Positions 2,212-34,386 of a DNA stretch of 45,264 bases are shown one piece after another. Every line of letters starts with the position of its first letter. Positions within the stretch are counted from its first letter, which is position 1. A program made the translations under genes and the position numbers. Below the pieces are notes generated by a model. That model was not told the origin of the DNA, ran no database searches, and saw only the letters and a list, made by a program, of their open reading frames with translations. The stretch is from assembly GCA_041752155.1 (NCBI GenBank), contig JBGSHR010000238.1:1-45264 (forward strand), in the 5' to 3' direction. This DNA comes from Thiobacillaceae bacterium. GTDB taxonomy: Bacteria; Pseudomonadota; Gammaproteobacteria; Burkholderiales; Thiobacillaceae.

Positions 2212-3570
2212 GTGGACAGGAGACGGCAATTGGCAAAGACACAGCGCAGCGCCCTCAGGCCCGGCGTGACCAGACGCGAGGTGTGGGCCTGGGCCATGTT
2301 CGATTTCGCCAACTCGGGCTACACCACCGTGGTCATCACCGCCGTGTTCAACGCCTATTTCGTGGCCACGGTGGCGGGCAACGCGCCCTGGGCCACCCTG
2401 GCCTGGACCGGCGCCCTGGCCCTGTCCTATGCCCTGATCATGCTCACCGCCCCGGCCCTGGGGGCCTATGCCGATCTGCGCACGGCCAAGAAGCGCCTGC
2501 TGGCCATCACCACCGTTGGCTGCGTGCTGGCCACGGCGGCCCTGGGTCTGGCCGGGCCGGGGGACATCTGGCTGGCGGCGTTGTTGGTGGTGGTGAGTAA
2601 CTATTTCTTCGGCACCGGCGAGAACCTCATCGCCGCCTTTCTGCCGGAACTGGCCCGGGGCCGCTCCCTGGGCTGGGTGTCGGGCCTGGGCTGGGGCCTG
2701 GGCTACCTCGGCGGTATCGTCAGTTTGGGCGCCAGCCTGGCCTATGTACTGCATGCCCAATTCCTGGGCCAGTCCGCCAGCCAGTTCGTGCCGGTGACCC
2801 TGTTTCTCACCGCTGGCATTTTTGCACTGGCCGCCTTGTCCACCTTCCTGTTCCTCAAGGAGCGTCCCATGGGGGAGGGCTCCGCCGAGCATCCCGTGGT
2901 GTCCGCTTACCGCCGCATGCTGGATACCCTGGGCCGCGCCCGCGACTATCCCGATCTGCTCCGCTTCCTGGTGTGCATCGTTTTCTATCAGGCCGGAGTG
3001 CAGGCGGTGATCGCTCTGGCTGCGGTCTATGCCCAGCAGGCCATGGGTTTCAATACCCAACAGAGCATCGTGTTGATCCTGGCGGTGAACGTGATGGCCG
3101 CCCTGGGGGCGTTGGGCTTCGGCCATGTACAGGATCGAATCGGCCACAAGGCGGCGGTGGCCTGGACCCTGGCCGGCTGGCTGTTGACCATCGTCCTGGC
3201 CTGGCTTGCTCCGGGGGCGGGCCTGTTCTGGCTGGCCGCCGGCTTGGCGGGCTTGTGCCTGGGGGCTTCCCAGTCCGCTGGTCGAGCCATGGTTGGATAC
3301 CTCAGTCCTCCGTCGCGGCGGGCGGAGTTCTTCGGCCTGTGGGGCATGGCGGTGAAGTTGTCCTCCATCCTGGGACCGGTAACTTATGGCGCGGCCGTGT
3401 GGCTGAACGGCGGCGCGCATCGGTCCGCCATGTTGACCCTGGCGCTGTTTTTCATCGTCGGTTTGGTCGTGCTAACCGGTGTGGATATGCGCCGGGGGCG
3501 GCGCGCGGCCTTGCGGGGGGAAAAAAAGAATATGGAAATCCACGTTGCCGCCGCGGAAAGGCTTGGATAG
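2212..3570 (+). CDS. MFS transporter, UMF1/Atg22-like family
   Basis: 452-aa polytopic membrane ORF with the family-typical REVWAWAMFDFANSGYTTVVITAVFNAYF N-terminus. The start is GTG, so the exact start is uncertain. Confidence 0.8.
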   Translation: MDRRRQLAKTQRSALRPGVTRREVWAWAMFDFANSGYTTVVITAVFNAYFVATVAGNAPWATLAWTGALALSYALIMLTAPALGAYADLRTAKKRLLAITTVGCVLATAALGLAGPGDIWLAALLVVVSNYFFGTGENLIAAFLPELARGRSLGWVSGLGWGLGYLGGIVSLGASLAYVLHAQFLGQSASQFVPVTLFLTAGIFALAALSTFLFLKERPMGEGSAEHPVVSAYRRMLDTLGRARDYPDLLRFLVCIVFYQAGVQAVIALAAVYAQQAMGFNTQQSIVLILAVNVMAALGALGFGHVQDRIGHKAAVAWTLAGWLLTIVLAWLAPGAGLFWLAAGLAGLCLGASQSAGRAMVGYLSPPSRRAEFFGLWGMAVKLSSILGPVTYGAAVWLNGGAHRSAMLTLALFFIVGLVVLTGVDMRRGRRAALRGEKKNMEIHVAAAERLG

Positions 3571-3835: not shown

Positions 3836-5731
3836 ATGCCTCAGATCAGATTGCCCGATGGCTCGGTTCGGGCCTTCGATAACCCGGTGACCGTGGCCCA
3901 GGTGGCGGCCAGCATCGGCGCCGGCCTGGCCCGGGCGGCCCTGGCCGGCAAGTTGGACGGCCAGTTGGTGGATACCTCCCATCTGATCGAACAGGATGCG
4001 GACCTGGCCATCATCACCGACAAGGATGCGGACGGCCTGGACCTGATCCGCCATTCAACGGCCCATCTCCTGGCCTACGCGGTCAAGCAGTTGTTCCCGG
4101 ATGCCCAGGTAACCATCGGCCCGGTGATCGAGGACGGCTTCTATTACGACTTCTCCTTGAAGACCCCCTTCACGCCGGAAGACCTGGCGGCCATCGAGAA
4201 GCGCATGGCGGAGCTGGTCAAGCAGGACATCCCGGTGACCCGGGAGGAGTGGGATCGGGATGCGGCGGTGGACTTCTTCAAGTCCATCGGCGAGCACTAC
4301 AAGGCGGAGCTCATCGCCAGCATTCCGGCCGGCCAGACCATTTCCTTGTATCGGGAAGGCGACTTCATCGACCTGTGCCGGGGCCCCCACGTGCCCAGCA
4401 CCGGCAAGCTCAAGGTCTTCAAGCTCATGAAGCTGGCCGGCGCCTACTGGCGCGGCGACTCCAAGAACGAGATGCTGCAACGGGTGTACGGCACTGCCTG
4501 GGCCAACAAGGACGACCTGGCCGCCTATCTGCATCGTCTGGAAGAGGCGGAGAAGCGAGACCACCGTCGCCTGGGCAAGCAGCTGGACCTGTTTCATCTC
4601 CAGGACGAAGCGCCGGGCATGGTGTTCTGGCATCCCCACGGCTGGGTGCTGTGGCAGGAGATCGAGCAGTACATGCGCGGGAAATTCATCGAGTACGGCT
4701 ACCAGGAAGTCAAAACCCCCACGGTGATGGACAAGAGCCTGTGGGAGAAGTCCGGCCACTGGGACAACTACCGGGAACAGATGTTCACCACCGCCTCGGA
4801 GAACCGGGATTACGCGGTGAAGCCCATGAACTGCCCCGGCCACGTGCAGATCTTCAATCACGCCCTGCGCAGCTACCGGGACCTGCCTCTGCGTTTGGCT
4901 GAGTTTGGTTCCTGCCATCGCAACGAGCCCTCCGGTGCGCTGCATGGCCTGATGCGGGTGCGTGCCTTCACCCAGGACGATGCCCACATCTTCTGTACCG
5001 AGGATCAGATCCAGGCCGAGGTGTCGGACTTCATCAAGATGCTCCAGGCCTGCTATGCGGATTTCGGCTTTGCCGACGTGCTGGTGAAGCTCTCCACCCG
5101 TCCCGACAAACGGGTCGGTTCGGACGAGAGCTGGGACAAGGCGGAGGCCGCCCTGGCGGCGGCGCTGGAACAGAATGCCCTGGCCTTCGATCTGCAGCCC
5201 GGCGAGGGCGCTTTCTACGGACCCAAGATCGAGTTCACCCTGAAAGATTCTTTGGGCCGGCTGTGGCAGGTGGGCACCATCCAGCTGGACTTCAACCTGC
5301 CGGTGCGCCTGGGCGCCGAATTCGTGGACGAGGACAACACCCGCAAGCCGCCGGTCATGCTGCACCGGGCCATCCTCGGCTCCATGGAGCGCTTCATCGG
5401 CATCCTCATCGAACACTACGCCGGCAACTTCCCGGTTTGGCTGGCGCCGGTGCAGGCGGTGGTGATGTGCATCACCGATGCCCAGGCGGAATATGCCGCC
5501 CAAATCACGGAAGCCCTTAGAAAACAAGGCTTCCGCGTGGTTTCGGACTTGAGAAACGAGAAGATTACCTATAAAATCCGCGAGCACTCCATGCAGCGCG
5601 TGCCGTTTCAAGTGATCGTGGGCGAGAAAGAACGCCTGGAAAACAAGGTGGCGGTGCGAGCAAGGGGTGGCGAGGATCTCGGCCAGATGGGCCTTGAGGA
5701 CTTGGTCGCCAAGCTGCGTGAGGGGATTTGA
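3836..5731 (+). CDS. thrS: Threonyl-tRNA synthetase
   Basis: [14 protein letters not shown] is a TGS-domain N-terminus. Class II motifs are present ([28 protein letters not shown]). The ATG at 3836 has a GGAG SD upstream and is preferred over the TTG at 3812 used by the ORF track. Confidence 0.96.
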
Positions 5732-5794
5732 ATATCACAGGAGCCGATGAAGCTGATCGGCTCCTCGTTTTTTGACCATTAAAAGGGGCTTGAG

Positions 5795-6316
5795 ATAGCA
5801 CAGGACAAGGAACCCCGAATCAACGGCGAGATCGACACGCCTCAGATTCGACTGGTAGGGGTGGACAGCGAGCAGCTGGGTATCGTGAGTCTGCGGGAAG
5901 CGCTGAGCAAGGCGGAAGAAGCTGAGCTGGATCTGGTGGAGATTGCGCCTCAGGCGGAGCCTCCGGTATGCCGAATCATGGATTACGGCAAGTTCAAGTA
6001 CCAGGAGAGCAAGAAGCAGCACGACGCCAGGCTCAAGCAGAAGCAGATCCAGGTCAAGGAAGTGAAGTTCCGCCCGGGTACCGACGAGGCGGATTACCAG
6101 GTCAAGCTGCGCAATCTGGTTCGCTTCCTGGACGAGGGTGACAAGGCCAAGATTACCCTGCGCTTCCGTGGTCGAGAGATGGCCCACCAGGAATTGGGTT
6201 TGCAGTTGCTCAAGCGGGTCGAGGCGGATTTGGCCGAACTCGGTGTGGTGGAACAGTTTCCCAAGATGGAAGGGCGGCAGATGGTGATGGTCCTGTCCCC
6301 GAAGAAGAAGAAATAA
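5795..6316 (+). CDS. infC: Translation initiation factor IF-3, probable non-canonical AUA start
   Basis: The frame is open from the stop at 5780-5782. The conserved IF-3 N-terminus [22 protein letters not shown] lies upstream of the first GTG (5861). ATA at 5795 is preceded by the AAAAGGGG SD. Confidence 0.85.
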
Positions 6317-7070: not shown

Positions 7071-8066
<996 letters not shown>

Positions 8067-10456: not shown

Positions 10457-10765
10457 ATGACCCTCACCAAAGCAGAACTGGCCAACCTGTTGTTCGAAAA
10501 GGTCGGCTTGAATAAACGCGAAGCCAAAGAGATGGTGGAGACCTTCTTCGAAGAGGTGCGCACCGCCCTGGAAAAAGGCGACAGCGTAAAACTCTCCGGT
10601 TTCGGCAATTTTCAGCTGCGCGAAAAGCCCCAGCGTCCTGGGCGTAACCCCAAGACCGGTGAAGAGATGCCCATCACCGCCCGGCGCGTGGTGACCTTTC
10701 ATGCCAGTCAGAAGCTGAAGGCTATGGTGGAAGAAGCCCATGTCGGACCATCTGCCGAACTCTGA
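10457..10765 (+). CDS. ihfA: Integration host factor alpha subunit
   Basis: [28 protein letters not shown]...[23 protein letters not shown] 10457 has an ACGGAG SD and is preferred over the TTG at 10436, which overlaps the pheT stop. Confidence 0.93.
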
Positions 10766-11123
10766 ACTCCCCCCCATTCCGCCGAAACGGTATTTCACCA
10801 TCGGCGAAGTGAGCGAACTGTGCGGCGTCAAGCCCCATGTGCTGCGTTACTGGGAGCAGGAATTCTCCCAGTTGAAGCCGGTCAAGCGGCGCGGCAACCG
10901 ACGCTATTATCAGCATCACGAGGTGATGTTGATCCGGCGCATCCGGGAACTGCTCTACGAACAGGGCTTTACCATCATTGGCGCGCGCAACCGCCTGCTT
11001 TCCGACGGCCCGGAAACTGGAAGTATTGCCCATGAGGATCCGCTTGCCTCGACGGCTGACGGTGTGGACTTGGCCAGCCTCAAGCGCGAACTGGGCGAGA
11101 TCATCGAGTTGCTCAAGCACTAG
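10740..11123 (+). CDS. MerR-family HTH transcriptional regulator (conserved partner downstream of pheST-ihfA)
   Basis: 127 aa with [26 protein letters not shown], a MerR-type HTH. It overlaps the ihfA 3' end by 26 nt. Confidence 0.85.
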
Positions 11124-11476
11124 CTGCTTGCCCGCCGCCCCTCCGGGCCTCGTTTTCTCCCCTTCGCCATATCGCCTCGGTGTTGTCGCAGGGCGAGCAA
11201 ACATTCCAGATGCTTCCCAAACACGGGGCGATTCACCTAATCTGAGCGGCGCATGATTCCCGCCATGCTCAGGAGGTGTAGCCGTGCTCCAGGAAATGAC
11301 CGACGATATTCTTGTCTTCCCGGTGCGGTGCGGCTCGGCCCGACCAAACCGATGTGGAGCAGAGTAGTGCGCGCCCTCATTGCCCCAAACCTGGACGATA
11401 CGTACCTGGCCATTTATCTCTGCATCACGTTTCACCCGAGTGAAACGGCGGACGGGCTGGGCTGAGGCTATAGATC

Positions 11477-12925
11477 ATGGGGCAGGAGATCGCGCGCACG
11501 GTTTTCTCGGCAGATGATTTCCAGCGCTTTCATGGGGCTCTCGCCGAGGAGACCCGGCAGCTGGCTGCCTTTGCGCGGGACGGTGGATTCATGGATCCAC
11601 GTTACGTGGTCGGGTTCGAACTGGAGGCTTGGCTGTTGGATCATGCCGGTCTGCCCAATCCCATCAACCAGCCCTTCCTGAAAGCCTTGCACGATCCGTT
11701 GGTGGTGCCGGAACTCTCCCGCTTCAATGTGGAGATCAACGGGCCGCCCCAGGAAATGGGCCCCGGCGCGTTGTCGGCACTGGAATATTCCCTGCGCGCT
11801 ACCTGGGCCCGATGCCAGGATACCGCCCACGCCATGGACACCATGCTGGCCATGATCGGCATTCTGCCCACGATCCGCGACGAAGACCTGGGTCTGGCAA
11901 ACCTCTCAGCCCAGAATCGCTATGTCGCGCTCAATCAGCAAGTCCAGCGGCAGCGGGCCGGTGAACCGATTTGCATCGATATCGACGGGATGGACCCGCT
12001 CCGGATAAAGCGGCCGGACGTCATGTTGGAAGCCGCCACCACCTCGTTTCAGGTGCATCTGCAGGTGCCTTATCACCAGGCCGGTCGTCATTACAACGCC
12101 GCGCTGATTGCCAGCGCCCCGGTCCTGGCGGCCTCCACCAATTCACCGCTGCTGTTTGGCCACAGGCTGTGGCGCGAGACCCGCATCCCCCTGTTCGAGC
12201 AGTCGGTGGAACTGGGCGGTTATGGCGGCCTGGCGGATCGGACGGTACGCCGCGTCACATTCGGTCGGAGCTATGTGGACCGGGATCTCATGGACCTGTT
12301 CCTGGAGAACCTGACGCTCTATCCGGTTCTTTTGCCCATGGGGCAACTGTCCACCGGGCAAAACTATCCCCACTTGCGTCTGCACAATGGCTGTATCTGG
12401 CGCTGGGTCAGGCCCCTGCTCGGTTTCGATGCGGATGGCTTGCCCCATGTGCGCATCGAACAGCGGGTGTTGCCCAGCGGTCCCACAATCCTGGACATGA
12501 TGGCCAATGCCGCCTTTCATTTCGGTCTTACCCATGCCCTCGCCAGCAGTCCCAGGGCGCCGGAGCGGGAACTGGCCTTCGTGGATGCCAGCGCCAATTT
12601 CTACCGCGCCGCGCGGGAAGGCCTCGATGCCCGGCTGGTATGGTTGGACGGACGCAGCTACCCGGCGCCGGAGCTGATCCAGGCGTGGTGTTTGCCCCTG
12701 GCACGCCAGGGGCTTGCAGATCTCGGCCTGGAGTCAGCCGAGGTGGAGCGTTATCTGGATGTGTTGGCGGCTCGGGTAGCCAGCGGCCAGACCGGGGCAG
12801 AGTGGCAACTGGGCCGGCTGGCACGCGAGCGGGGGGATGTGGCGCGCATGATGGAGGTCTATTTGCATAACCAACGTGCCGACTTGCCGGTGCATGAATG
12901 GGATGTCCGAGAAGATCCATGCTGA
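11477..12925 (+). CDS. GCS2-family carboxylate-amine ligase (glutamate-cysteine ligase family 2-like), substrate unknown
   Basis: 482 aa. The GFELEAWLLD...FNVEINGPP...TTSFQVHLQVP...PLLFGHRLWRETRIPLFEQS pattern is typical of the GCS2/YbdK-type fold. The assignment rests on motif recall only. Confidence 0.7.
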   Translation: MGQEIARTVFSADDFQRFHGALAEETRQLAAFARDGGFMDPRYVVGFELEAWLLDHAGLPNPINQPFLKALHDPLVVPELSRFNVEINGPPQEMGPGALSALEYSLRATWARCQDTAHAMDTMLAMIGILPTIRDEDLGLANLSAQNRYVALNQQVQRQRAGEPICIDIDGMDPLRIKRPDVMLEAATTSFQVHLQVPYHQAGRHYNAALIASAPVLAASTNSPLLFGHRLWRETRIPLFEQSVELGGYGGLADRTVRRVTFGRSYVDRDLMDLFLENLTLYPVLLPMGQLSTGQNYPHLRLHNGCIWRWVRPLLGFDADGLPHVRIEQRVLPSGPTILDMMANAAFHFGLTHALASSPRAPERELAFVDASANFYRAAREGLDARLVWLDGRSYPAPELIQAWCLPLARQGLADLGLESAEVERYLDVLAARVASGQTGAEWQLGRLARERGDVARMMEVYLHNQRADLPVHEWDVREDPC

Positions 12926-13941
12926 CCATTTACGACCATGTCCCCCACGGACTACTGCACCAAGCGGCAGCCGGCCTTGGGGAGATACTGTCGGGCCCAA
13001 CGTTGCTCCACCTGCCCGGCCGGCGCCCGGATGCGCTATTCGTCTCCGTGCTGCTGCACGGCAACGAGGACACGGGGTGGCTGGCGGCTCGGGCGATCCT
13101 GCGCAAATACGCACAGATGCCGTTGCCGCGCGCTTTGTCCCTGTTTATCGGCAACCTGGAGGCGGCGCGGGTGGGCGTGCGCCGCCTGGATGGCCAGCCG
13201 GACTACAACCGCGTCTGGCCCGGTAGCCCGGAGCGCCATCTGCCCGAAGCCGCCATGATGGCGCGGGTGGTGGAGGAGATGCGGGTACGTCAGGTGTTCG
13301 CCAGCATCGACATCCACAACAACACCGGGCTGAATCCCCACTACGCCTGCGTCAACCGGCTGGACCGGGATTTTCTCCATCTCGCCCGCTTGTTCTCGCG
13401 CACGGTGGTTTATTTCGTGCGTCCCCTGGGGGTGCAGTCCGCCGCCTTCGCCGAGTTTTGTCCCGCCGTCACGCTGGAGTGCGGCAAGCCCGGAGCGCCA
13501 GGCAGCGTGGAACATGCGGTGGAGTTCCTGGAGTCCTGTCTGCACCTGTCGGAATTTCCTGTCCATCCGGTGGCTGCCGGCGATGTGGATCTATTCCATA
13601 CCGTCGCCACGGTCAAGGTGCCGGAACACCTGAGTTTCGGTTTCGGTCCCCAGGGTTTTGATATCGAGTTTGCCCCGGAGCTGGACCACTTCAACTTCCA
13701 GGAGCTGGCATCGGGCACCCTCTTGGGGCGGACTCGTCCGGGCGGGTGGGCCTGTCTCGCCGCGCTGGATGAACAGGGCCAGGACGTGGGCAGACGGCTG
13801 TTCGATTGCGCCGATGGCCTGATTCGTCTGAAGCGGGCGCTGATGCCCGCCATGCTCACCCGGGACGAGCGGGTGATCCGCCAGGATTGCCTGTGCTACC
13901 TCATGGAACGCCTGCCTTACCCGGACGCGCGGGAGCGTTGA
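12919..13941 (+). CDS. Succinylglutamate desuccinylase/aspartoacylase-family (M14-like) zinc hydrolase
   Basis: The family Zn-binding motif is present (VSVLLHGNEDTGW, then DYNRVWPG, then IDIHNN). The ATG at 12919 overlaps the upstream stop (ATGCTGA). Confidence 0.7.
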   Translation: MLTIYDHVPHGLLHQAAAGLGEILSGPTLLHLPGRRPDALFVSVLLHGNEDTGWLAARAILRKYAQMPLPRALSLFIGNLEAARVGVRRLDGQPDYNRVWPGSPERHLPEAAMMARVVEEMRVRQVFASIDIHNNTGLNPHYACVNRLDRDFLHLARLFSRTVVYFVRPLGVQSAAFAEFCPAVTLECGKPGAPGSVEHAVEFLESCLHLSEFPVHPVAAGDVDLFHTVATVKVPEHLSFGFGPQGFDIEFAPELDHFNFQELASGTLLGRTRPGGWACLAALDEQGQDVGRRLFDCADGLIRLKRALMPAMLTRDERVIRQDCLCYLMERLPYPDARER

Positions 13942-27273: not shown

Positions 27274-27634
27274 GGGGCCGACCTGGCTTCGACGTGGGTT
27301 GCAAAGCAGACAAGGGCATACCGAGGACCAGTTCCCTCGTAAATCCAGCTGGAATTTATTAGTCGCCAACGACGAAACCTACGCTCTAGCCGCTTGACGG
27401 CTAGACTCCACACCGGTTGGTCCATGGGCCGGGCTGGGAAACCAGCAGTGGAGTCATACACATGGACTCGCTTTGACTCGGGCCGCTTGAGTCGAAGTTA
27501 AATTAAGGTGGCTCGTTTGAACTCAGCCTGTCTGGCCGGCGGGGTTCAGATTAAAAACAAATGACCGGACTAAGTATGTAGAACTTGCTGTGGAGGACTT
27601 GCGGACGGGGGTTCGATCCCCCCCGGCTCCACCA
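27274..27634 (+). ncRNA. ssrA: tmRNA (SsrA), tag ANDETYALAA
   Basis: The 5' GGGGCCG pairs with the 3' CGGCTCC, including the G3:U Ala-identity pair. The T-arm is GGTTCGATCCC and the 3' ACCA is present. The tag reading frame is GCC AAC GAC GAA ACC TAC GCT CTA GCC GCT TGA at 27365-27397. Confidence 0.95.
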
Positions 27635-27702: not shown

Positions 27703-27853
27703 TTGCCTGAAATCCCCGCGCCACGCGGGGTTTCTGCCATCCGTGCAGCGGGTGGGATCTCGCCGAAACGCCCGAATTTGGCCACTTTCCTGGCCATAGC
27801 CGTCTCTTTTCTCCGTTTGGCCCGCGGGTAGGCGCAGATGGTGCTCTAGCAAA

Positions 27854-27914
27854 CTCATGAGGTGCTCATGAACTGCTCATGGGAGAAGTTCATCGCCGTG
27901 TCATGATCCGTCAC
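27854..27914 (+). promoter_or_regulatory. Array of six helically phased TCAY direct repeats (Pho-box-like) upstream of the phosphoesterase gene
   Basis: TCAT occurs at 27855, 27866, 27877, 27890 and 27901, and TCAC at 27911, giving spacings of 11, 11, 13, 11 and 10. The last two units read GTGTCATgatcCGTCAC, compared with the Pho box CTGTCATawawCTGTCAY. A -10-like TTTAAT lies at 27929-27934. Confidence 0.5.
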
Positions 27915-27952: not shown

Positions 27953-30889
27953 ATGGAACGCATCGATCGCTTCATCTGGACTTTGCAACGTCTGATTGCG
28001 GTTCTGTTCCTGAGTCTGGCTGGCAATCTGGCTTGGGCCGCGGATCTGGTGCCCTACCTGCAAACGCCGACTGCCACCTCGATCTGGGTGTCCTGGAAAT
28101 CGGCGGCGGTGGGCACCCCGGTGGTCGAGTACGGCACCACGGCAGACAACCTGAACATGCAGGCCACCGGCTCCAGCCAGCAACTGGCGGCCGACTACTT
28201 CTTCCAAGGCGTACAGCTCACCGGCCTGAGCCCCGAGACCTTCTACTACTACCGCATCAAGACCGGCGCCCAGGTGTCCAATGTCTACCGATTCCGCACC
28301 CAGCCTACCCATGGTCAGACCAGCGGCAAGTTCCGCATCCTGGTGGCCGGGGATCACCAGATCCGGGACCAGAGCCGCTACCTGACCCTGATGAACGCGG
28401 CCAAGGCCAAGATCGAATCCATGTACGGCCAGCCCCTGGAAGAGGTGGTCAACCTGCTGGTGAACGACGGCGACCAGGTGGATGTGGGCACTCTGGACCA
28501 CTACGAGCAGCTGCATTTCCGCCAGTCGGCGCCGGTCTCCAAGAACATCCCCATCATGACCACGGTGGGCAACCACGAGGCCTACTACGACCCGGGCATG
28601 GCCAACTGGAAGGCCCACTTCTTCATCGACGGCATCAACTACAAGGGCCACGCCCCCGGGCCGGACGAGCGCTACTACGCCAACCACGTGGGCCGGGTGT
28701 TATTCATCCACCTGGACAGCGAGGCCACCAGCGACATCCAGAAGAACTGGGCCCAGGCGGTCATGGCCAGCGCCGACGCCGACCCCGAGGTGGACTGGGT
28801 GATCAGCGTCATCCACCGGCCCTATCAAGCGGAACAATATGTGGGCGACATCTCCGGCTGGTTCCGGGATCAGGTGATGCCCATCCTGTCCGCCTCCCGC
28901 AAGCATGTGCTCAACATCGCTGGTCACCATCACCTCTACGCCCGTGGCCAGACCCGGGATTGGCCCACCTACCACATGATCTCCGGCGGCACCGCCTGGG
29001 ACCAGTTCTGGGGCCAGTCCACGGAAAAGGACTTCGATGATGTGCAGAAGACCATCGCCAATTGGACCTGGCAGCTGATCGAGATCGACGTGGCCACCAA
29101 GGAGATGACCGTCCGCTCCTATTCCGAGGCCCATCCCAAGCTAGGCTTCGTCTATACCAGCCGTTTGACCGATGAATTCCACCGCAATCTGAATCAAGGC
29201 GCGCCGGAGCAGCCGCACCTGACCAATGCCATCAGCGGCCCCATCACGCTGCCGTTTACCTTCACCAGCTCGGAATTCCAGTCCGCCTTCGGCGAACAGT
29301 TGAACAGCACCCAGTTCCAGTTCTCCCGCAACCCGAGCTTTAGCGATCTGGTGCTGGACCGCATCCGCGACACCGAAAACCTCTATGGCGACACCGGTGC
29401 GCCGCTATACGAGCCGGTCGATATCCATGCCGGGCTCAACATCCTGTCCTATGAGCTGCCGCAATATGGTTTGCCCAATGGCGGTTACTACGCACGTGTT
29501 CGCCATCGCGACCGCAACGTGGAATGGTCGGCCTGGTCCGAAGGCGTGTTCTTCAGTATCGAGGGCAGCACCGAAGGCAGCCCGGTCCTCACACTGGCCA
29601 AGACGGTCTTCGTCCCCGCCGATAAGGTGCGCGTCGACTACGCCAATGGCACCGGCAATACCAAGGACTGGGTCGGTATCTTCAAGAAAGGCCAGACCCC
29701 GGGCAGCGTTGGTTCCACGAAGTTCGCCTACGTCACCGGCCCCAACGGCTATGTGGAGTTTTCCGGCCTGACCGCCGGCGCCGAGTACTACGCTGGCTTC
29801 TTCTCCAATGACGGCTACGGCGAGATCGCCGATAGGGTGAATTTCTACGTCGGCAGCCAGCCCAGCGTGGTCATCAATAAGACCGAGTTTGCGGTGGGCG
29901 AGGCGGTCAACTTCAACTGGACCAACGCCCCTGGCATGAGCACCGACTGGATTGGCGTCTACCGTGTCGGTCAGGTTCCCGGCCAGGTTGGATCGACCGC
30001 TTGGACCTATGCGCCGACGACCAACGGCAGCGTCAGCTTCCCCGACCTGGCCAAGGGTTACTACTACGCCACCTTCATGGCCAACGACGGCTACTTCGAG
30101 ATCATCGATCGCATCTACTTCTCGGTGGGCGACAGGATCGGCACCCTGACCATGGTCAAGACCGCTCTGGATGCCAGCGAGGACTTCGACATCGCCTTTG
30201 CCGACGGCCCCGGCATCGCCAAGGATTACCTGGGCATCTTCAAACTGGGCGATACCCCTGGCGTGGACAAGCTGGTGACGTATTACTACTTCGATGGCAA
30301 GTCCCTGGGCAGCGTGCATGTCACCGAGGATCTGCCGGACGGTAATTACTTCGTGGCCATGTTCACAAACGACTCTTACACCGAAGTCTCGAACCGGGTG
30401 GAATTCTCTGTTGGCGAGGCGCAGCTGCCGCCGCCGCCGGCCACGCTGAGCATCAACAAGGGCCAATTCTTCGACACCGAGCCAGTCGTGCTGACCTGGG
30501 CCAACACCCCCGGTGGTGCCAAGGATTGGATCGGCATCTACAAGGCCGGACAGACTCCGGGCGGCCCGGATTCCACCCAGTGGAGCTACGTCGCCGGGAG
30601 TTCCGGCAGCAAGAGCTTCAGTGGCCTGGTGGCGGGTGACTACTTCGCCGCGTTCATGATCAACGACGGCTACACGGAAGTCACCCCCCGAGTGAGCTTC
30701 AAGGTGATCAAGCTGGGCGACATCACCGGCGACGGCAAGGTGGACCTGGCCGACCGCAACGCCCAGCGCGCAGCCATGGGCAGCTGCTTCGGTGACACGC
30801 GCTACAACGCTGCCGCCAACTTCGACGCTGACAGTTGCATCACCCAGAAGGATTACAAGCTGTGGTACGCGATCTTCAAGAAGCAGTGA
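27953..30889 (+). CDS. Secreted multidomain phosphoesterase: signal peptide, PAP-type FN3 N-domain, calcineurin-like metallophosphatase, FN3-like domain, 4 tandem SKICH-like repeats, C-terminal dockerin-like module
   Basis: Signal peptide AVLFLSLAGNLAWA/AD. Metallophosphatase motifs are VAGDHQ, GDQVD, GNHE, VIHRP and GHHH. Four ~90-aa repeats contain (K/T)DW(I/V)G(I/V)(F/Y)K.GQ.PG. The C-terminus reads GDITGDGKVDLAD...NFDADSCITQKD. Confidence 0.85.
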   Translation: MERIDRFIWTLQRLIAVLFLSLAGNLAWAADLVPYLQTPTATSIWVSWKSAAVGTPVVEYGTTADNLNMQATGSSQQLAADYFFQGVQLTGLSPETFYYYRIKTGAQVSNVYRFRTQPTHGQTSGKFRILVAGDHQIRDQSRYLTLMNAAKAKIESMYGQPLEEVVNLLVNDGDQVDVGTLDHYEQLHFRQSAPVSKNIPIMTTVGNHEAYYDPGMANWKAHFFIDGINYKGHAPGPDERYYANHVGRVLFIHLDSEATSDIQKNWAQAVMASADADPEVDWVISVIHRPYQAEQYVGDISGWFRDQVMPILSASRKHVLNIAGHHHLYARGQTRDWPTYHMISGGTAWDQFWGQSTEKDFDDVQKTIANWTWQLIEIDVATKEMTVRSYSEAHPKLGFVYTSRLTDEFHRNLNQGAPEQPHLTNAISGPITLPFTFTSSEFQSAFGEQLNSTQFQFSRNPSFSDLVLDRIRDTENLYGDTGAPLYEPVDIHAGLNILSYELPQYGLPNGGYYARVRHRDRNVEWSAWSEGVFFSIEGSTEGSPVLTLAKTVFVPADKVRVDYANGTGNTKDWVGIFKKGQTPGSVGSTKFAYVTGPNGYVEFSGLTAGAEYYAGFFSNDGYGEIADRVNFYVGSQPSVVINKTEFAVGEAVNFNWTNAPGMSTDWIGVYRVGQVPGQVGSTAWTYAPTTNGSVSFPDLAKGYYYATFMANDGYFEIIDRIYFSVGDRIGTLTMVKTALDASEDFDIAFADGPGIAKDYLGIFKLGDTPGVDKLVTYYYFDGKSLGSVHVTEDLPDGNYFVAMFTNDSYTEVSNRVEFSVGEAQLPPPPATLSINKGQFFDTEPVVLTWANTPGGAKDWIGIYKAGQTPGGPDSTQWSYVAGSSGSKSFSGLVAGDYFAAFMINDGYTEVTPRVSFKVIKLGDITGDGKVDLADRNAQRAAMGSCFGDTRYNAAANFDADSCITQKDYKLWYAIFKKQ
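29582..30706 (+). repeat. Four tandem in-frame ~90-aa domain repeats inside the phosphoesterase CDS (about 29582-29854, 29861-30130, 30131-30416, 30440-30706)
   Basis: The protein-level repeat is V.(F/V).W/Y......KDWIGIYK.GQTPG...ST.W.Y.....GS..F..L..G.Y.A.F..NDGY.E...RV.F.VG. The DNA copies are diverged, so this is not a recent duplication. Confidence 0.85.
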
Positions 30890-30921
30890 TGCGCACCTGA
30901 CCCAACCCGATTTCTGGAGAA

Positions 30922-32073
30922 ATGTTCATGACCCCCAAGATTTTCCCCCGCCACGCCCTTGGCGCGGCCCTGCTGGTAGCCTTGTTGTCGGTCGCCAGCT
31001 TCGTGCCGGCAGCCCACGCCGCCTGGAACACCAATCTGATCGTCAACGCCGGGGCTGAAGACGCCGTCGGTGGCGACGGCACCTTTGCATCGAATTTGCC
31101 CGGCTGGAACGTGACCGGCGAGTTGACCGCGATCGACTATTCGCTCGGCTGCCCCGGTGGCTATCCTTGCCTGACCGATCCGGGCCCCTCCGATCCCGGC
31201 CTGAATCATTTCGGTAGCGGCTACGCGGCTTCCTCCAGGGGCACCCAGACCATCGACCTGAGTTTCGCCCAGGGCGGCATCAACGGCGCCGGGGCTTACT
31301 ATTCCTTGTCAGGTTGGCTGGGCGGTTATGCCAGCCAGACAGACAATGCCATTCTGTCCGTCAGTTTCCTGAATGCCTCCAATCAGGTCATCGGCGGTAG
31401 TGGCGTCGGGCCGGTATCGGCCGCCGAGCGGGGCAACGCGACCGCCATGCTTTACCGTGAGGCAACTGGCTGGATGCCGGCAGGCACGACGTCCGCCCAG
31501 GTGGAATTGCTCATGACCCGTACCGGCGGCACCTCCAACGATGGCTACGCGGACAACCTGGCCCTGAGCCTGGCTCCCGCCAACGTGGTGATGACCGCTC
31601 CCGGCCAGGCGGCTGTCGGCGCCAGCTTTGACGTGACCGTCGCCGTGATGTCGCCCTTCGCCAGCGGCTACAGCGGTGACGAGTTGCTCGCCTTCGGATT
31701 CGACCTCGGCTTCGACCCCGCCTTGGTGAGCCTTACCGGCGTCAGCGTCGCCGGCCCCTGGGACGATGACAGCGGATATTTCAGCGACGTGGCGGTGGCC
31801 GGGTCGGTGTTCGAGAGCATCGCCGACGCGGATCAGGGCACGGTCGATCTGGCGACCCTGACCTTCAAGGTGCTGGCCGAGGGCGATGTCCTCATCGACG
31901 TCCATTCGGATGCCGCCGGCAATCTCAACGAGGGCCTTACCTACGGGCTAGGTGACAACGTCGACCTTTACGGCCGCGCCAGCGTGGTTCTCAGCCCGGT
32001 ACCGGAGCCCGGTGAATGGCTGATGATGTCCGCCGGGTTGCTGCTTCTTGCACTGCGTCGTCGCCGGAACTGA
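30922..32073 (+). CDS. PEP-CTERM-anchored surface protein: signal peptide, jelly-roll/CBM-like domain, cohesin-like domain, PEP-CTERM sorting signal
   Basis: Signal peptide ALLVALLSVASFVPAAHA/A. The N-domain runs NLIVNAGAED..LPGW...NDGYADNLALSL. The cohesin-like stretch is GASFDVTVAV...LLAFGFDLGFDPALVSLTGVSV...LATLTFKVLAEGDV. The C-terminus is PVPEPGEWLMMSAGLLLLALRRRRN (31996-32070). Confidence 0.8.
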   Translation: MFMTPKIFPRHALGAALLVALLSVASFVPAAHAAWNTNLIVNAGAEDAVGGDGTFASNLPGWNVTGELTAIDYSLGCPGGYPCLTDPGPSDPGLNHFGSGYAASSRGTQTIDLSFAQGGINGAGAYYSLSGWLGGYASQTDNAILSVSFLNASNQVIGGSGVGPVSAAERGNATAMLYREATGWMPAGTTSAQVELLMTRTGGTSNDGYADNLALSLAPANVVMTAPGQAAVGASFDVTVAVMSPFASGYSGDELLAFGFDLGFDPALVSLTGVSVAGPWDDDSGYFSDVAVAGSVFESIADADQGTVDLATLTFKVLAEGDVLIDVHSDAAGNLNEGLTYGLGDNVDLYGRASVVLSPVPEPGEWLMMSAGLLLLALRRRRN

Positions 32074-32100
32074 AACCGCGGTTCAACATGCTTCATCCCA

Positions 32101-32133
32101 GCCGCCCGCTCCGCGGGCGGCTTTATTTATTTC
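32101..32133 (+). terminator. Rho-independent terminator after the PEP-CTERM gene
   Basis: GCCGCCCGC-tcc-GCGGGCGGC perfect 9-bp stem followed by TTTATTTATTT. Confidence 0.8.
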
Positions 32134-32152
32134 TCGGGTGTTCCGCCTTCGC

Positions 32153-33352
32153 ATGATCGACCTCTTCCGCCGCCTTCTGCTTCTGCTGGTATGCCTGCCG
32201 ACCCTGGCTTTCGCCCACATCAGCGGCTTTACGGATACCTCCATCCAGATTTCGGCCACCGGCATCCGCATCCTCTATACCCTGCCTAGCGACAGCCTGC
32301 TGGAACTGGTAAAGCCGCCTGTGGACGATCCCCGCTCCGCCTCGCCGGAACACTACCTCGACGCGGTGCGGAGCGGCTGGTCGGTCATGTCTGGAGGGGA
32401 ACGCTGTCTGCTTACCCAGGCACAGGCCCGTTCGCTGGAAAACTTGCCGTCTTATCAATATCAATTCACTTATGTCTGCCCTCATGGGATGGATGAGCTG
32501 ATCCTCCGCTATGGCTTGTTCTTCAAGAAATGGCCCGACCACGAGAATTTCGTCCGGGTGTTCATGGCCGACCAGCGCCAGCGCATGCGCTTTACCGCGG
32601 AACACCAGGAGTTCGCGATACCTGTCGCCTCTCTGCTGGGCCAGTGGAACAAAGCCCTGGCCATGGGCTTCTTCGAGGCCGATCCCAACCGAGGCCTGAA
32701 GGATGCCCTGGAGGGGCGCGAGGGCAGCATACCCCGGGTCGTCGAGCCCACGCCCAGTCTGGGCAGCCTGGATCTGGCCCAGATCGATCCGGGTTTCATA
32801 CGGCTGGGGCTTGGCCACATCTTCATGGGCCTCGACCACGTGCTGTTCGTCGTCGGTCTGGTTCTGGTCACTTCCTCCTGGCGCCGCCTGCTGGCTCTGA
32901 TCACGGCTTTCACCGTGGCACATTCGGTCACGCTTGGCCTATCCACCCTGGGGCTCATCGACTTCGACCCCGTCATCGCCGAGCCGCTGATCGCCCTGAC
33001 CATTCTGTATATCGGCCTGGAGAATCTCTGGACGCTCTATCGAGCCAAGGCCGAGGCCAGCGTCGGTGTCACCGGGGCGATGCTGCGCCGCGCCGGCCTG
33101 GTGTTCGTGTTCGGTTTGATCCACGGCGTCGGTTTCAGTTACGTCCTGCGCGAGATGGGGTTGCGCGAGGATTTGCTGGGTTCCTTGCTGTATTTCAACC
33201 TGGGCGTGGAACTGGGGCAATTGGCCATCATCGCCCTGGTTCTACCCATTGTGCTGCTCTGGCGCCGTCTGGCCTGGGGTGTCAGGCTGACCGCCGGGGC
33301 ATCTTTGCTGGTGGCCTGCGCCGGGGCGCTCATGTTCATCAGCCGGATTTGA
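32153..33352 (+). CDS. HupE/UreJ_2-like membrane protein with ~220-aa N-terminal periplasmic domain
   Basis: Signal peptide LLLLLVCLPTLAFA/HISG. The C-terminal half carries GHIFMGLDHVLFVVGL, AFTVAHSVTLGLS, FGLIHGVGFS and NLGVELGQL. ATG 32153 is chosen because the ORF-track start at 32048 would run through the upstream terminator. Confidence 0.75.
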   Translation: MIDLFRRLLLLLVCLPTLAFAHISGFTDTSIQISATGIRILYTLPSDSLLELVKPPVDDPRSASPEHYLDAVRSGWSVMSGGERCLLTQAQARSLENLPSYQYQFTYVCPHGMDELILRYGLFFKKWPDHENFVRVFMADQRQRMRFTAEHQEFAIPVASLLGQWNKALAMGFFEADPNRGLKDALEGREGSIPRVVEPTPSLGSLDLAQIDPGFIRLGLGHIFMGLDHVLFVVGLVLVTSSWRRLLALITAFTVAHSVTLGLSTLGLIDFDPVIAEPLIALTILYIGLENLWTLYRAKAEASVGVTGAMLRRAGLVFVFGLIHGVGFSYVLREMGLREDLLGSLLYFNLGVELGQLAIIALVLPIVLLWRRLAWGVRLTAGASLLVACAGALMFISRI

Positions 33353-33382
33353 ACTTGGCATATCGGCTCGGAGGAATTAACG

Positions 33383-33889
33383 ATGTTCACGCAAAACATG
33401 TTCAACCTGTTCAGTACCTGGGTTCTGGTTTGGGCGGCACTGGCCGGCCCGGGGCAGGCTCTTGGGGATGCCCTCAAGCCGGGAACCCGCTATGTGCTCC
33501 AGGGCGACACGATTTACGATCGCAAGACTGACCTCACCTGGCAGCGCTGCACCTACGGCCAGCATTGGCGGGAGGTCGGGGAATGCCAGGGCGAGCCCCG
33601 GCGCCTGACTTTCGATGACGCCAACAAGTTGAAGCTCGGCGGCTGGCGCCTACCCACCCTTGACGAGCTCAATTCCATCGTCGTGCGTGGCCGCAAACCG
33701 AGTATCGATGCAACCCTGTTCCCGAATACGCCACCTCTGTATTACTGGGCCACTGACAACCGGGACAACTCGTTCGCCTGGTATGTGTTTTTCGAGAACG
33801 GCGTCGCCAACCACTACTTCCCGCCCCGCACCAACAAGGATTTGGCGCGGCTGGTGCGCAGCGGAAAATGGCCCCCAGGCAAGCCCTGA
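33383..33889 (+). CDS. Secreted DUF1566 (Lcl C-terminal domain) protein
   Basis: Signal peptide, then TDLTWQRC...GQHW...LTFDDA...GGWRLPTLDELNSI...YYWA, which is the DUF1566 signature. Confidence 0.75.
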   Translation: MFTQNMFNLFSTWVLVWAALAGPGQALGDALKPGTRYVLQGDTIYDRKTDLTWQRCTYGQHWREVGECQGEPRRLTFDDANKLKLGGWRLPTLDELNSIVVRGRKPSIDATLFPNTPPLYYWATDNRDNSFAWYVFFENGVANHYFPPRTNKDLARLVRSGKWPPGKP

Positions 33890-34386
33890 GCGCCGCTTCG
33901 CTCTGGCGCCACCTCGTCGTGGCCGGGGCCGAGTTGGTCTGCTTCGTGGCCAGCGCCGGCTCCAGCGAGCTTCTGGTCGGGGCCGGACGGTTCATCGCCG
34001 ATCACGATCAGGTTCATGACCGCCAAACGGGTCTCACCTGGCAACGTTGCAGTCTCGGCCAGCGCTGGGACGCTGAACTGGGCTGCGTCGGCGTGGCGCG
34101 GAAGATCGAGTTTGCCGAGGCCCGGCAACTGGAGTCGGCTGACTGGCGCTTGCCCACGCTGGCCGATCTGCGCACGCTCTACCGTCTCGACCTTCAGGAT
34201 CTTGCCGATCCCGCCGCATTCCCCGACGCCCCCACCACTTGGTATTGGGCACTGAGTCCCGGGGCGACCCAGGCGGTTTGGGGCGTGGCCTGCGATGGGG
34301 AGCGCCGGGACACCTGCTCCCGCGGCGGCGGCCGCGCCGTTCGCCTGGTTCGCCGTCGGCTAGATCCGGCGGGGAATATGAAATGA
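33868..34386 (+). CDS. DUF1566 (Lcl C-terminal domain) protein, tandem paralog
   Basis: TGLTWQRCSLGQRW...IEFAEA...ADWRLPTLADLRTL...WYWA. It overlaps the upstream paralog by 22 nt. The start is uncertain and the N-terminal hydrophobic segment is a weak signal peptide. Confidence 0.65.
   Translation: MAPRQALSAASLWRHLVVAGAELVCFVASAGSSELLVGAGRFIADHDQVHDRQTGLTWQRCSLGQRWDAELGCVGVARKIEFAEARQLESADWRLPTLADLRTLYRLDLQDLADPAAFPDAPTTWYWALSPGATQAVWGVACDGERRDTCSRGGGRAVRLVRRRLDPAGNMK

Follow-up and report, generated by a model that had tools for sequence, protein, structure and literature searches.

Two neighbouring genes of a Thiobacillaceae bacterium raise the question of whether a secreted enzyme that ends in a dockerin can be retained at a Gram-negative cell surface by a receptor encoded next to it. 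The genes lie at positions 27,953 to 32,073 of contig JBGSHR010000238.1 (assembly GCA_041752155.1), which was analysed over 45,264 nucleotides (hereafter, the window). A preliminary description, made from the DNA letters alone, had read them as co-directional and 32 nt apart, and both open reading frames are found there, namely gene 1, encoding 978 amino acids, and gene 2, encoding 383 amino acids, whose ATG is preceded by GGAG (Table 1). Our analysis indicates that they probably form a two-gene cargo-and-anchor module, in which a dockerin-bearing enzyme would be held at the cell surface, or in the exopolysaccharide (EPS) layer, by a protein that combines a cohesin-fold domain with a PEP-CTERM sorting signal.

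Dockerins are built of tandem segments of approximately 22 residues, each consisting of an EF-hand-like Ca loop (with ligands at positions 1, 3, 5, 9 and 12) followed by a helix. The last 60 residues of the gene 1 protein (IKLGDITGDGKVDLADRNAQRAAMGSCFGDTRYNAAANFDADSCITQKDYKLWYAIFKKQ) appear to hold the same tandem duplication, with two EF-hand-like loops, DITGDGKVDLAD and NFDADSCITQKD, where loop 1 reads D-I-T-G-D-G-K-V-D-L-A-D and loop 2 reads N-F-D-A-D-S-C-I-T-Q-K-D, and with a helix-prone stretch after each of them; most orthologs have N or D at the third position of loop 1. This is in agreement with the duplicated Ca-loop segment that had been noticed at the end of gene 1. A word-indexed search with the 65-residue tail returned two fragments and was uninformative, and tblastn and hmmsearch on fetched loci were used instead. 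When a profile of nine orthologous tails, among which 32 positions are invariant, was compared with PDB sequences, the four best matches were all dockerins (E 1.9e-4 to 5e-4), and the best alignment, to the dockerin 2y3n_B, covers both Ca-loop repeats. Moreover, orthologous tails score between 12.4 and 30.3 bits with the Pfam profile Dockerin_1 (PF00404), one of them passing the curated cut-off (30.3), while five dockerins of the same subfamily carried by other proteins pass it with 24.0 to 32.9 bits. On these sequence grounds, we take the tail of gene 1 to be a dockerin.

The dockerins of this subfamily share the signature GDLDGDGDVDxxDxxxFRSxLGKCxGDxGFxxEADYDGDGC[VI]TYADYRIWYGYY. In addition, two of its positions vary together: among 43 distinct dockerin sequences, the residues equivalent to Cys945 (30785-30787) and Cys962 (30836-30838) are both present in 37 and both absent in six, and none has a single one. 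This all-or-none pattern suggests a disulfide staple from the inter-repeat linker to the second Ca loop, and we know of no Cys staple of this kind in classical dockerins.

We then considered the gene 2 protein, for which 26 full-length orthologs (54-71% identity) supported an AlphaFold2 model of the whole chain with a predicted local distance difference test (pLDDT) score of 88. Residues 218-358 are modelled as nine strands with a pLDDT of 95.8, and this predicted domain displays the nine-stranded beta-sandwich of the cohesin fold. In a Foldseek search, the nine best PDB matches were all cohesins (2vo8, 2jh2, 2w1n, 6kgf, 6kgc and 4dh2; E 2.7e-6 to 2e-4), the best template modelling (TM) scores were 0.67-0.70, and cohesins of types I, II and III filled most of the top 20. 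Moreover, divergent relatives repeatedly give weak matches to the Pfam Cohesin family (PF00963; E 3e-4 to 0.09; 12.8-21.5 bits, none above the cut-off), and RefSeq names the homologs from Hahella and Aquabacterium 'cohesin domain-containing protein'. The predicted fold, these recurrent sub-cut-off matches and the RefSeq name together identify residues 218-358 as a cohesin-fold domain, as modelled. The C-terminus reads VPEP-GEWLMMSAGLLLLAL-RRRRN, and its motif, transmembrane helix and basic cluster are recognized as a PEP-CTERM signal by TIGR02595 (20.9 bits, above the cut-off of 16); gene 2 orthologs also pass PF07589, with up to 32.5 bits. Within NCBIfam, the closest match is to the FxDxF PEP-CTERM family NF038126, with scores below its cut-off (26-39 bits against 50). 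Both the cohesin-like stretch and the PEP-CTERM signal that had been proposed for gene 2 are thus recovered.

The pairing of the two genes is conserved. Full-length gene 2 orthologs were found in Methyloversatilis, in a Thiobacillaceae metagenome-assembled genome (MAG) and in other proteobacterial MAGs, and in all eight loci examined first (L001-L004 and L081-L084) a gene 1 ortholog, 65-81% identical, lies directly upstream, in surroundings that vary from locus to locus. The family of the cohesin-fold domain is much wider: a full HMMER scan with a profile of this domain (E <=1e-3) gave 344 representative relatives, most of them of approximately 190 amino acids and consisting of a signal peptide, the cohesin-like domain and PEP-CTERM. 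A set of 37 metagenomic loci with such small family members (from a 14-sequence alignment subset), together with three obtained by exact look-up, was collected, and a hidden Markov model (HMM) of the gene 1 dockerin was run over the loci carrying a cohesin-like domain. A same-strand dockerin precedes the cohesin domain in 49 of 51 sequences, at a distance of 52-726 nt. One of the two exceptions lacks upstream sequence, so that 49 of the 50 testable loci carry a dockerin directly upstream, in L085 as part of the same polypeptide, whereas none was detected in 76 control loci (1.14 Mb) that share with the window only the N-terminal domain of gene 2. The conservation of the pair that the preliminary description had asked about therefore holds among close orthologs and in the wider family alike, and its suggestion that the gene 2 protein is a minimal scaffoldin, to which the gene 1 enzyme would bind, gains support from this pairing and from the fold model.

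What the dockerin is attached to differs strongly between these loci, although it always occupies the extreme C-terminus of the cargo protein. Phosphoesterases resembling purple acid phosphatases (PAP) were found in 15 loci (the window, L001-L004, L081-L084, L086-L088, L124, L125 and that of Hahella chejuensis). In the last of these, from strain KCTC 2396, HCH_06681 is the family member; upstream of it lies a PAP-like enzyme of 885 amino acids ending in GDLNGDGVADGADRDLL...ADYDGDGCIGRQDYRLWYAMY, and downstream a HupE_UreJ_2 gene. The other cargo proteins are nucleases with LTD and Exo_endo_phos domains (L090, L091, L094, L099, L120 and L122), an Exo_endo_phos protein with jacalin and ricin lectin domains (L126), Peptidase_C25 (L108 and L113), Peptidase_M64 (L101), Lcl_C with Peptidase_M23 (L106), glycoside hydrolase family 43 (GH43; L098), a legume lectin (L089), an alpha/beta hydrolase (L112), DUF11 proteins (L097 and L118), PKD or PASTA proteins (L107 and L109), and giant proteins of immunoglobulin-like (Ig) repeats, that is, adhesins (L093 and L117). 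Because the cargo varies while the dockerin stays, the conserved link is that of dockerin with cohesin, and not of either with a particular enzyme; such a cargo-independent relation is what a binding pair would predict.

Three further observations concern the relation between the two modules. The distance matrices of dockerins and cohesin domains are correlated (Mantel r 0.76 over all pairs and 0.69 without the orthologs), and none of 2000 permutations reaches these values. Protein P0157 (L085, 186-917, on a contig of 1.4 kb) has an N-terminal Dockerin_1 domain (23.6 bits, above the cut-off), a cohesin-like domain and PEP-CTERM in one polypeptide, and could self-associate into chains if its two modules are cognate. 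Separately, locus L089 has two dockerin genes (about 2930-3100 and 5711-5872) upstream of one cohesin/PEP-CTERM gene, and is the sole such locus seen.

In the mechanism that we propose, the gene 1 enzyme would be exported by Sec, its last 60 residues forming a dockerin with two Ca-binding loops and, probably, a stabilizing disulfide. The gene 2 protein would also be exported by Sec, and the exosortase of the genome would be expected to process its PEP-CTERM signal, after which the protein would stay fixed to the cell surface or within the EPS layer. The dockerin would bind the cohesin-fold domain, presumably in a Ca-dependent manner, which would stop the enzyme from diffusing away from the surface of the cell or of the EPS. 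For the lectin-like N-terminal domain of gene 2, the probable ligand is a glycan, belonging to the matrix or to a phosphorylated glycopolymer that serves as substrate. The likely purpose of the arrangement would be that phosphate freed from organic phosphoesters stays near the cell that produces the enzyme.

Several results count against this proposal and have to be set beside it. The preliminary description had suggested a check with three profiles, of which TIGR02595 recognized gene 2 while those for the two binding modules fell short in the window: the gene 1 tail alone aligns to positions 1-50 of the 57 of Dockerin_1 with 15.8 bits (E 0.016), under the curated cut-off of 22.9, and residues 218-358 of gene 2 match Cohesin with 18.7 bits (E 0.002), under the cut-off of 24.1; dockerins of relatives, with up to 32.9 bits, do pass. 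A search of PDB sequences with the cohesin-domain profile, up to E 10, returned no cohesin and only spurious matches to the channel protein VDAC, and a broader profile touches PDB cohesins at a non-significant E of 0.3-1.1. The cohesin assignment rests mainly on the predicted fold because sequence profiles reach no PDB cohesin significantly. In addition, gene 2 itself scores 15.0 with PF07589, under the cut-off of 20.7, and no exosortase gene was found in the 45-kb window. In locus L115, the 488 nt available upstream of the cohesin-like gene contain no dockerin, and this gene is a genuine orphan. Shared ancestry could contribute to the Mantel correlation and is not separable from it. Finally, a periplasmic complex would have to cross the outer membrane without a known route, as is the case for PEP-CTERM proteins in general.

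Part of this evidence would be expected if the two genes had nothing to do with docking. A chance resemblance or an annotation artefact, in which low-information DxNxDG-like loops and a beta-strand pattern are mistaken for modules without any functional link, would be consistent with the HMM matches of the window's own proteins, at E 0.002-0.026. We consider it extremely improbable, as both genes are kept at 54-81% identity in many genomes, the invariant tail positions are as many as 32 in nine orthologs, and the statistics of dockerin-cohesin adjacency exclude chance; since the pair is conserved, its motifs are not accidental. It is also conceivable, but quite unlikely, that the PEP-CTERM surface protein uses its cohesin-like domain as a generic spacer of Ig-like or beta-sandwich type, and that the dockerin-like tail is a Ca-dependent stabilizing or glycan-binding module with some other partner, the two genes being co-transcribed because their products serve the same process. 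All cohesin sequence scores being below the cut-off, with a profile that falls short of PDB cohesins, would suit such non-docking neighbours, and many non-cellulosomal dockerins are without a known partner (PMC5244752). Nevertheless, the association tracks the dockerin and not the enzyme, in 49 of the 50 testable loci, with at least 10 unrelated cargo types and with no case in the 1.14 Mb of controls; moreover, dockerin and cohesin-like domain occur fused in one protein, and the fold search returns cohesins specifically, and not generic Ig folds.

Other alternatives accept the docking and give it a different purpose. The dockerin-cohesin complex could form in the periplasm, so that the PEP-CTERM protein takes an untagged enzyme through the exosortase/EPS route, with the cargo perhaps being released later. 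Cargo proteins having a Sec signal only, with no recognizable signal for secretion over the outer membrane, are compatible with such hitch-hiking export, as is the nearly private cohesin gene of each cargo, at a ratio of about 1:1, unlike the cellulosome logic of one scaffold for many enzymes. Moreover, related enzymes carry PEP-CTERM directly (P0057, and the PAP2-PATR-PEP-CTERM protein of L126), from which it follows that exosortase sorting of phosphoesterases is used in any case. However, the two dockerin genes for one cohesin gene in L089 depart from that ratio, passage over the outer membrane by means of exosortase is itself not established, and transport and tethering would leave the same evidence; we regard export of this kind as unlikely. 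Somewhat more ambitious is the possibility that cohesin/PEP-CTERM proteins are dedicated carriers of a new Gram-negative sorting route, comprising periplasmic capture, exosortase/EPS passage over the outer membrane and fixation in the matrix, which we consider rather unlikely. If true, it would provide a modular, pair-specific piggy-back system of secretion and display for phosphoesterases, nucleases, proteases and adhesins bearing a disulfide-stapled dockerin. Those refuting conditions of the preliminary description that were examined came out on the side of docking. Overall, the cargo-and-anchor module, in which the enzyme is tethered at the surface, is the reading that we adopt as probable in what follows.

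Regarding the cargo in the window, gene 1 is predicted to encode a Sec-exported metallophosphoesterase with a PAP-type cap. All orthologs have a hydrophobic N-terminus with an A-x-A end, and the catalytic region matches Pur_ac_phosph_N (E 1.4e-14; 54.8 bits against a cut-off of 30) and Metallophos (E 1.6e-9; 38.9 bits against 21.5), with five metal-ligand motifs, namely GDHQ (133), GDQVD (173), GNHE (206), VIHRP (286) and GHHH (324). By sequence, the closest solved structure, and the sole solved relative, is the purple acid phosphatase 6git (E 8.8e-7). The Fn3-like N-terminal cap and the Metallophos domain with its GD, GDxx, GNHE, H and GHxH ligands are shared with purple acid phosphatases and calcineurin-like metallophosphoesterases. 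Nevertheless, the similarity to the former is distant, as the above E value indicates, and the gene 1 protein has about twice their length and includes four SKICH-like repeats, each carrying the motifs DW[IV]G[IV][FY]/DYLGIF and ND[GS]Y, in addition to the dockerin. Moreover, since its motif II is of the form GDxxD and is without the chromophoric Tyr of true purple acid phosphatases, we call it a PAP-like metallophosphoesterase, whose activity is predicted.

The N-terminal domain of gene 2 has no match to a Pfam family. Its model resembles the sugar-binding domain of Fbs1, the carbohydrate-binding modules (CBM) CBM16, CBM22 and CBM61, and MAM domains, according to Foldseek, in agreement with the lectin/CBM-like jelly-roll first read there. 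Reference genomes, among them those of Streptomyces, Catellatospora, Kitasatospora, Eremiobacterota and Myxococcales, contain 448 relatives of this domain; some stand alone with PEP-CTERM, some are in tandem copies and some are joined to phosphoesterases (PF04185 and PF01663), which makes the domain a candidate new glycan-binding module associated with phosphoesterases. In Actinobacteria, it is found in a single polypeptide with SKICH-like repeats of the gene 1 type and a PF04185 phosphoesterase, while fusions to PF01663 phosphodiesterases occur in bacteria outside this group, and one of these proteins (P0057) has a PEP-CTERM of its own. From this comparison, the covalent fusion of other lineages appears to be replaced here by a cohesin-dockerin pair. 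Two related gene arrangements were also observed: in L083, an extra gene (7249-8007) of 252 amino acids, with the lectin-like N-domain only, stands between gene 2 and the HupE-like gene, and in L126, a protein with PAP2 phosphatase and PATR domains and its own PEP-CTERM (11089-13068) is encoded beside the cohesin anchor and the Exo_endo_phos-lectin-dockerin gene, so that this neighbourhood includes another phosphoesterase with a putative direct anchor.

Conservation extends beyond the pair. Downstream of gene 2, a HupE_UreJ_2-family gene is present in all eight orthologous loci, in L087 and L088, and in Hahella; as none was found beside other cargo types in the loci examined, the HupE-like gene goes with the PAP-like enzyme. 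The two Lcl_C genes that follow are kept in seven of the eight orthologous loci, the contig of L004 ending before them. Given this co-conservation, the unit extends from 27953 to 34386, past a terminator-like hairpin, so that of the span 27953-32073 originally delimited, the pair stands and the extent does not. The strong terminator reported after gene 2 is indeed there as a hairpin, although it may not close the functional unit. It occupies the 80-nt gap (32073-32153) within the conserved gene order, with the HupE-like start 20 nt past the T-run, and may be a partial terminator or an mRNA-stabilizing element that sets different expression levels, rather than the end of a functional unit. The HupE-like permease and the two Lcl_C proteins accompany the PAP-like cargo type and, as a guess, might supply metal.

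Table 1. Features of the two-gene locus and of its surroundings (positions in the window).
Feature	Positions	Strand	Basis or description
Phased heptamer array AACTCAT, TGCTCAT, TGCTCAT, AGTTCAT, GTGTCAT, CCGTCAC (candidate site)	27852-27914	+	Spacing of ~11 bp, 40-100 nt upstream of gene 1
Gene 1, secreted multidomain metallophosphoesterase (predicted) ending in dockerin	27953-30889	+	Pfam, nearest structure, orthologs
Gene 1 signal peptide, residues 1-29, cleavage predicted after AWA	27953-28039	+	Read from translation
Gene 1 catalytic region: PAP-type Fn3-like domain (residues 37-116) and calcineurin-like phosphoesterase domain (127-328)	28061-28936	+	Pfam and motifs
Four SKICH-like beta-sandwich repeats, residues 538-918	29564-30706	+	Pfam SKICH, 34.7 bits (cut-off 23.4)
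C-terminal dockerin module, residues 919-978	30707-30886	+	Two Ca-loop/helix segments, conserved Cys pair
Gene 2, anchor protein (putative): signal peptide, lectin/CBM-like domain, cohesin-fold domain, PEP-CTERM	30922-32073	+	
Gene 2 signal peptide, residues 1-33, AHA|A	30922-31020	+	Translation and alignment; helical, low pLDDT in model
Lectin/CBM-like jelly-roll, residues 35-217	31024-31572	+	Foldseek
Cohesin-fold domain, residues 218-358	31573-31995	+	Pfam below cut-off, predicted fold
PEP-CTERM sorting signal: VPEP, transmembrane helix, RRRR	31996-32070	+	TIGR02595
Terminator-like hairpin and T-rich tail, TTATTTATTT	32100-32132	+	10-bp stem (9 G-C pairs), 3-nt loop; between gene 2 and HupE-like gene
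HupE_UreJ_2-family membrane protein, with N-terminal extracytoplasmic domain of ~210 amino acids	32153-33352	+	Pfam HupE_UreJ_2, E 4.5e-43
First small secreted Lcl_C (DUF1566) protein	33383-33889	+	Pfam Lcl_C, E 1.9e-20
Second Lcl_C protein	33868-34386	+	Pfam Lcl_C, E 3e-17

The surroundings of the cassette in the window are ordinary chromosome, with tRNA synthetases, pcm-nlpD-rpoS, hom-thrC, ubiG and gph upstream, and a GGDEF-EAL protein and flagellar genes, such as flgD, downstream; the host had been described as flagellated. A different context is found in each genome, with an IS240-family transposase beside the cassette in L083 and a phage-type integrase near it in L125, which suggests that the cassette moves between sites. 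A transfer-messenger RNA gene (tmRNA, ssrA; 27274-27634, plus strand; tag peptide ANDETYALAA) lies approximately 320 nt upstream of gene 1. It adjoins the cassette in the window only, being absent from the orthologous loci L001-L004, and a genomic island at the tmRNA gene, in its strong form, was rejected for this reason and for the unremarkable composition. Two open reading frames elsewhere in the window have no Pfam family at E <=1e-4, namely 10722-11435 on the minus strand (237 amino acids) and 11477-12925 on the plus strand (482 amino acids). As to regulation, the heptamer array upstream of gene 1 includes three exact CTCAT at 11-bp phase, an arrangement found once in the window, against 0.02 expected by chance. 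Its conservation is weak, with a clear pair in L002 only and a single GGCTCA(T/C) in the other orthologs, and it is tentatively a candidate response-regulator site, possibly Pho-box-like; expression of the pair may respond to phosphate.

Individually, the modules described here are known, and RefSeq already labels some family members as cohesin-domain proteins; the widespread system that they form is apparently undescribed. In the literature searched, no description of PEP-CTERM combined with cohesin and/or dockerin was found, although a 2009 survey of non-cellulosomal modules may list some of the genes, and where exosortase and dockerin are named in the same paper they are treated separately. 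To our knowledge, most PEP-CTERM proteins are without an assigned role. Likewise, catalogues of non-cellulosomal cohesin and dockerin modules have existed for years, yet most of these modules have no known function (PMC5244752). The pairing offers both classes one hypothesis, in which small PEP-CTERM cohesins would be receptors for dockerin-tagged enzymes at the Gram-negative surface or matrix, and this would surprise specialists in cellulosomes as well as in exosortases. If true, it would explain how floc or biofilm cells retain phosphate, nucleotides or peptides freed by their own extracellular enzymes, and surface display could draw on a natural, orthogonal set of cohesin-dockerin pairs equipped with an anchoring signal for Gram-negative cells. 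Experiments are feasible, as the pair is present in cultured and sequenced organisms such as Hahella chejuensis KCTC 2396 (HCH_06681 and the gene upstream of it) and Methyloversatilis.

How this module relates to known systems can be judged from its components. A cellulosome integrates dockerin-bearing glycoside hydrolases of the plant cell wall on a scaffoldin with multiple cohesins and a cellulose-binding module. The locus was considered under this heading and rejected, as each anchor has a single cohesin, CBM3 is absent and the cargo is a phosphoesterase, GH43 being the only glycoside hydrolase among the cargo types. With PEP-CTERM/exosortase substrates such as the floc protein PepA, the gene 2 protein shares the whole layout of signal peptide, passenger domain, PEP motif, transmembrane helix and Arg cluster. 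In contrast, the known PEP-CTERM proteins have been presented as end products in themselves, whether structural or without a known function, and the searched literature ascribes to none of them the part of a receptor for another protein that lacks the tag. PEP-CTERM/exosortase has been proposed as the Gram-negative counterpart of LPXTG/sortase (Haft 2006, PMC1569441), and two EpsH exosortases as well as 27 PEP-CTERM proteins are encoded by Hahella chejuensis, which carries a homologous pair (PMC1569441).

The best structural matches of the gene 2 cohesin-fold domain are the cohesins of the Clostridium perfringens NanJ/NagJ 'toxin complex' (2vo8, 2jh2, 2w1n and 2ozn; TM 0.66-0.70, E 2.7e-6 to 1e-4), which are also those weakly touched by the broad gene 2 sequence profile. 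The cohesin-dockerin pairs of C. perfringens serve enzyme-to-enzyme or enzyme-to-surface assembly outside cellulose degradation. In that Gram-positive pathogen, however, the modules belong to large glycosidases that are secreted, and they connect one enzyme with another, whereas here the cohesin-fold domain is part of a small protein devoted to anchoring, which bears an exosortase signal, and adjacent genes encode the pair. With anchoring scaffoldins, such as ScaE of Ruminococcus flavefaciens (PDB 2zf9, which ranks 17 among the fold matches of the gene 2 domain), the module shares a single cohesin followed by a C-terminal sorting signal, for the receipt of dockerin partners at the surface. It differs from them in that the anchor is PEP-CTERM, and not LPXTG or an S-layer homology (SLH) domain, and in that it is found in Gram-negative Proteobacteria, aerobic or facultative, which have an outer membrane. 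Moreover, a single enzyme is encoded beside the anchor, with about one cargo per anchor and no multi-cohesin scaffold, the cargo comprises phosphoesterases, nucleases, peptidases and adhesins instead of plant cell-wall enzymes, and the dockerin is of a distinct subtype, with the Cys pair and a DYR[IL]WY C-terminus. Overall, in logic the module comes closest to anchoring scaffoldins of the ScaE kind, with one cohesin and a sortase signal, while in fold the closest are the non-cellulosomal cohesins of C. perfringens.

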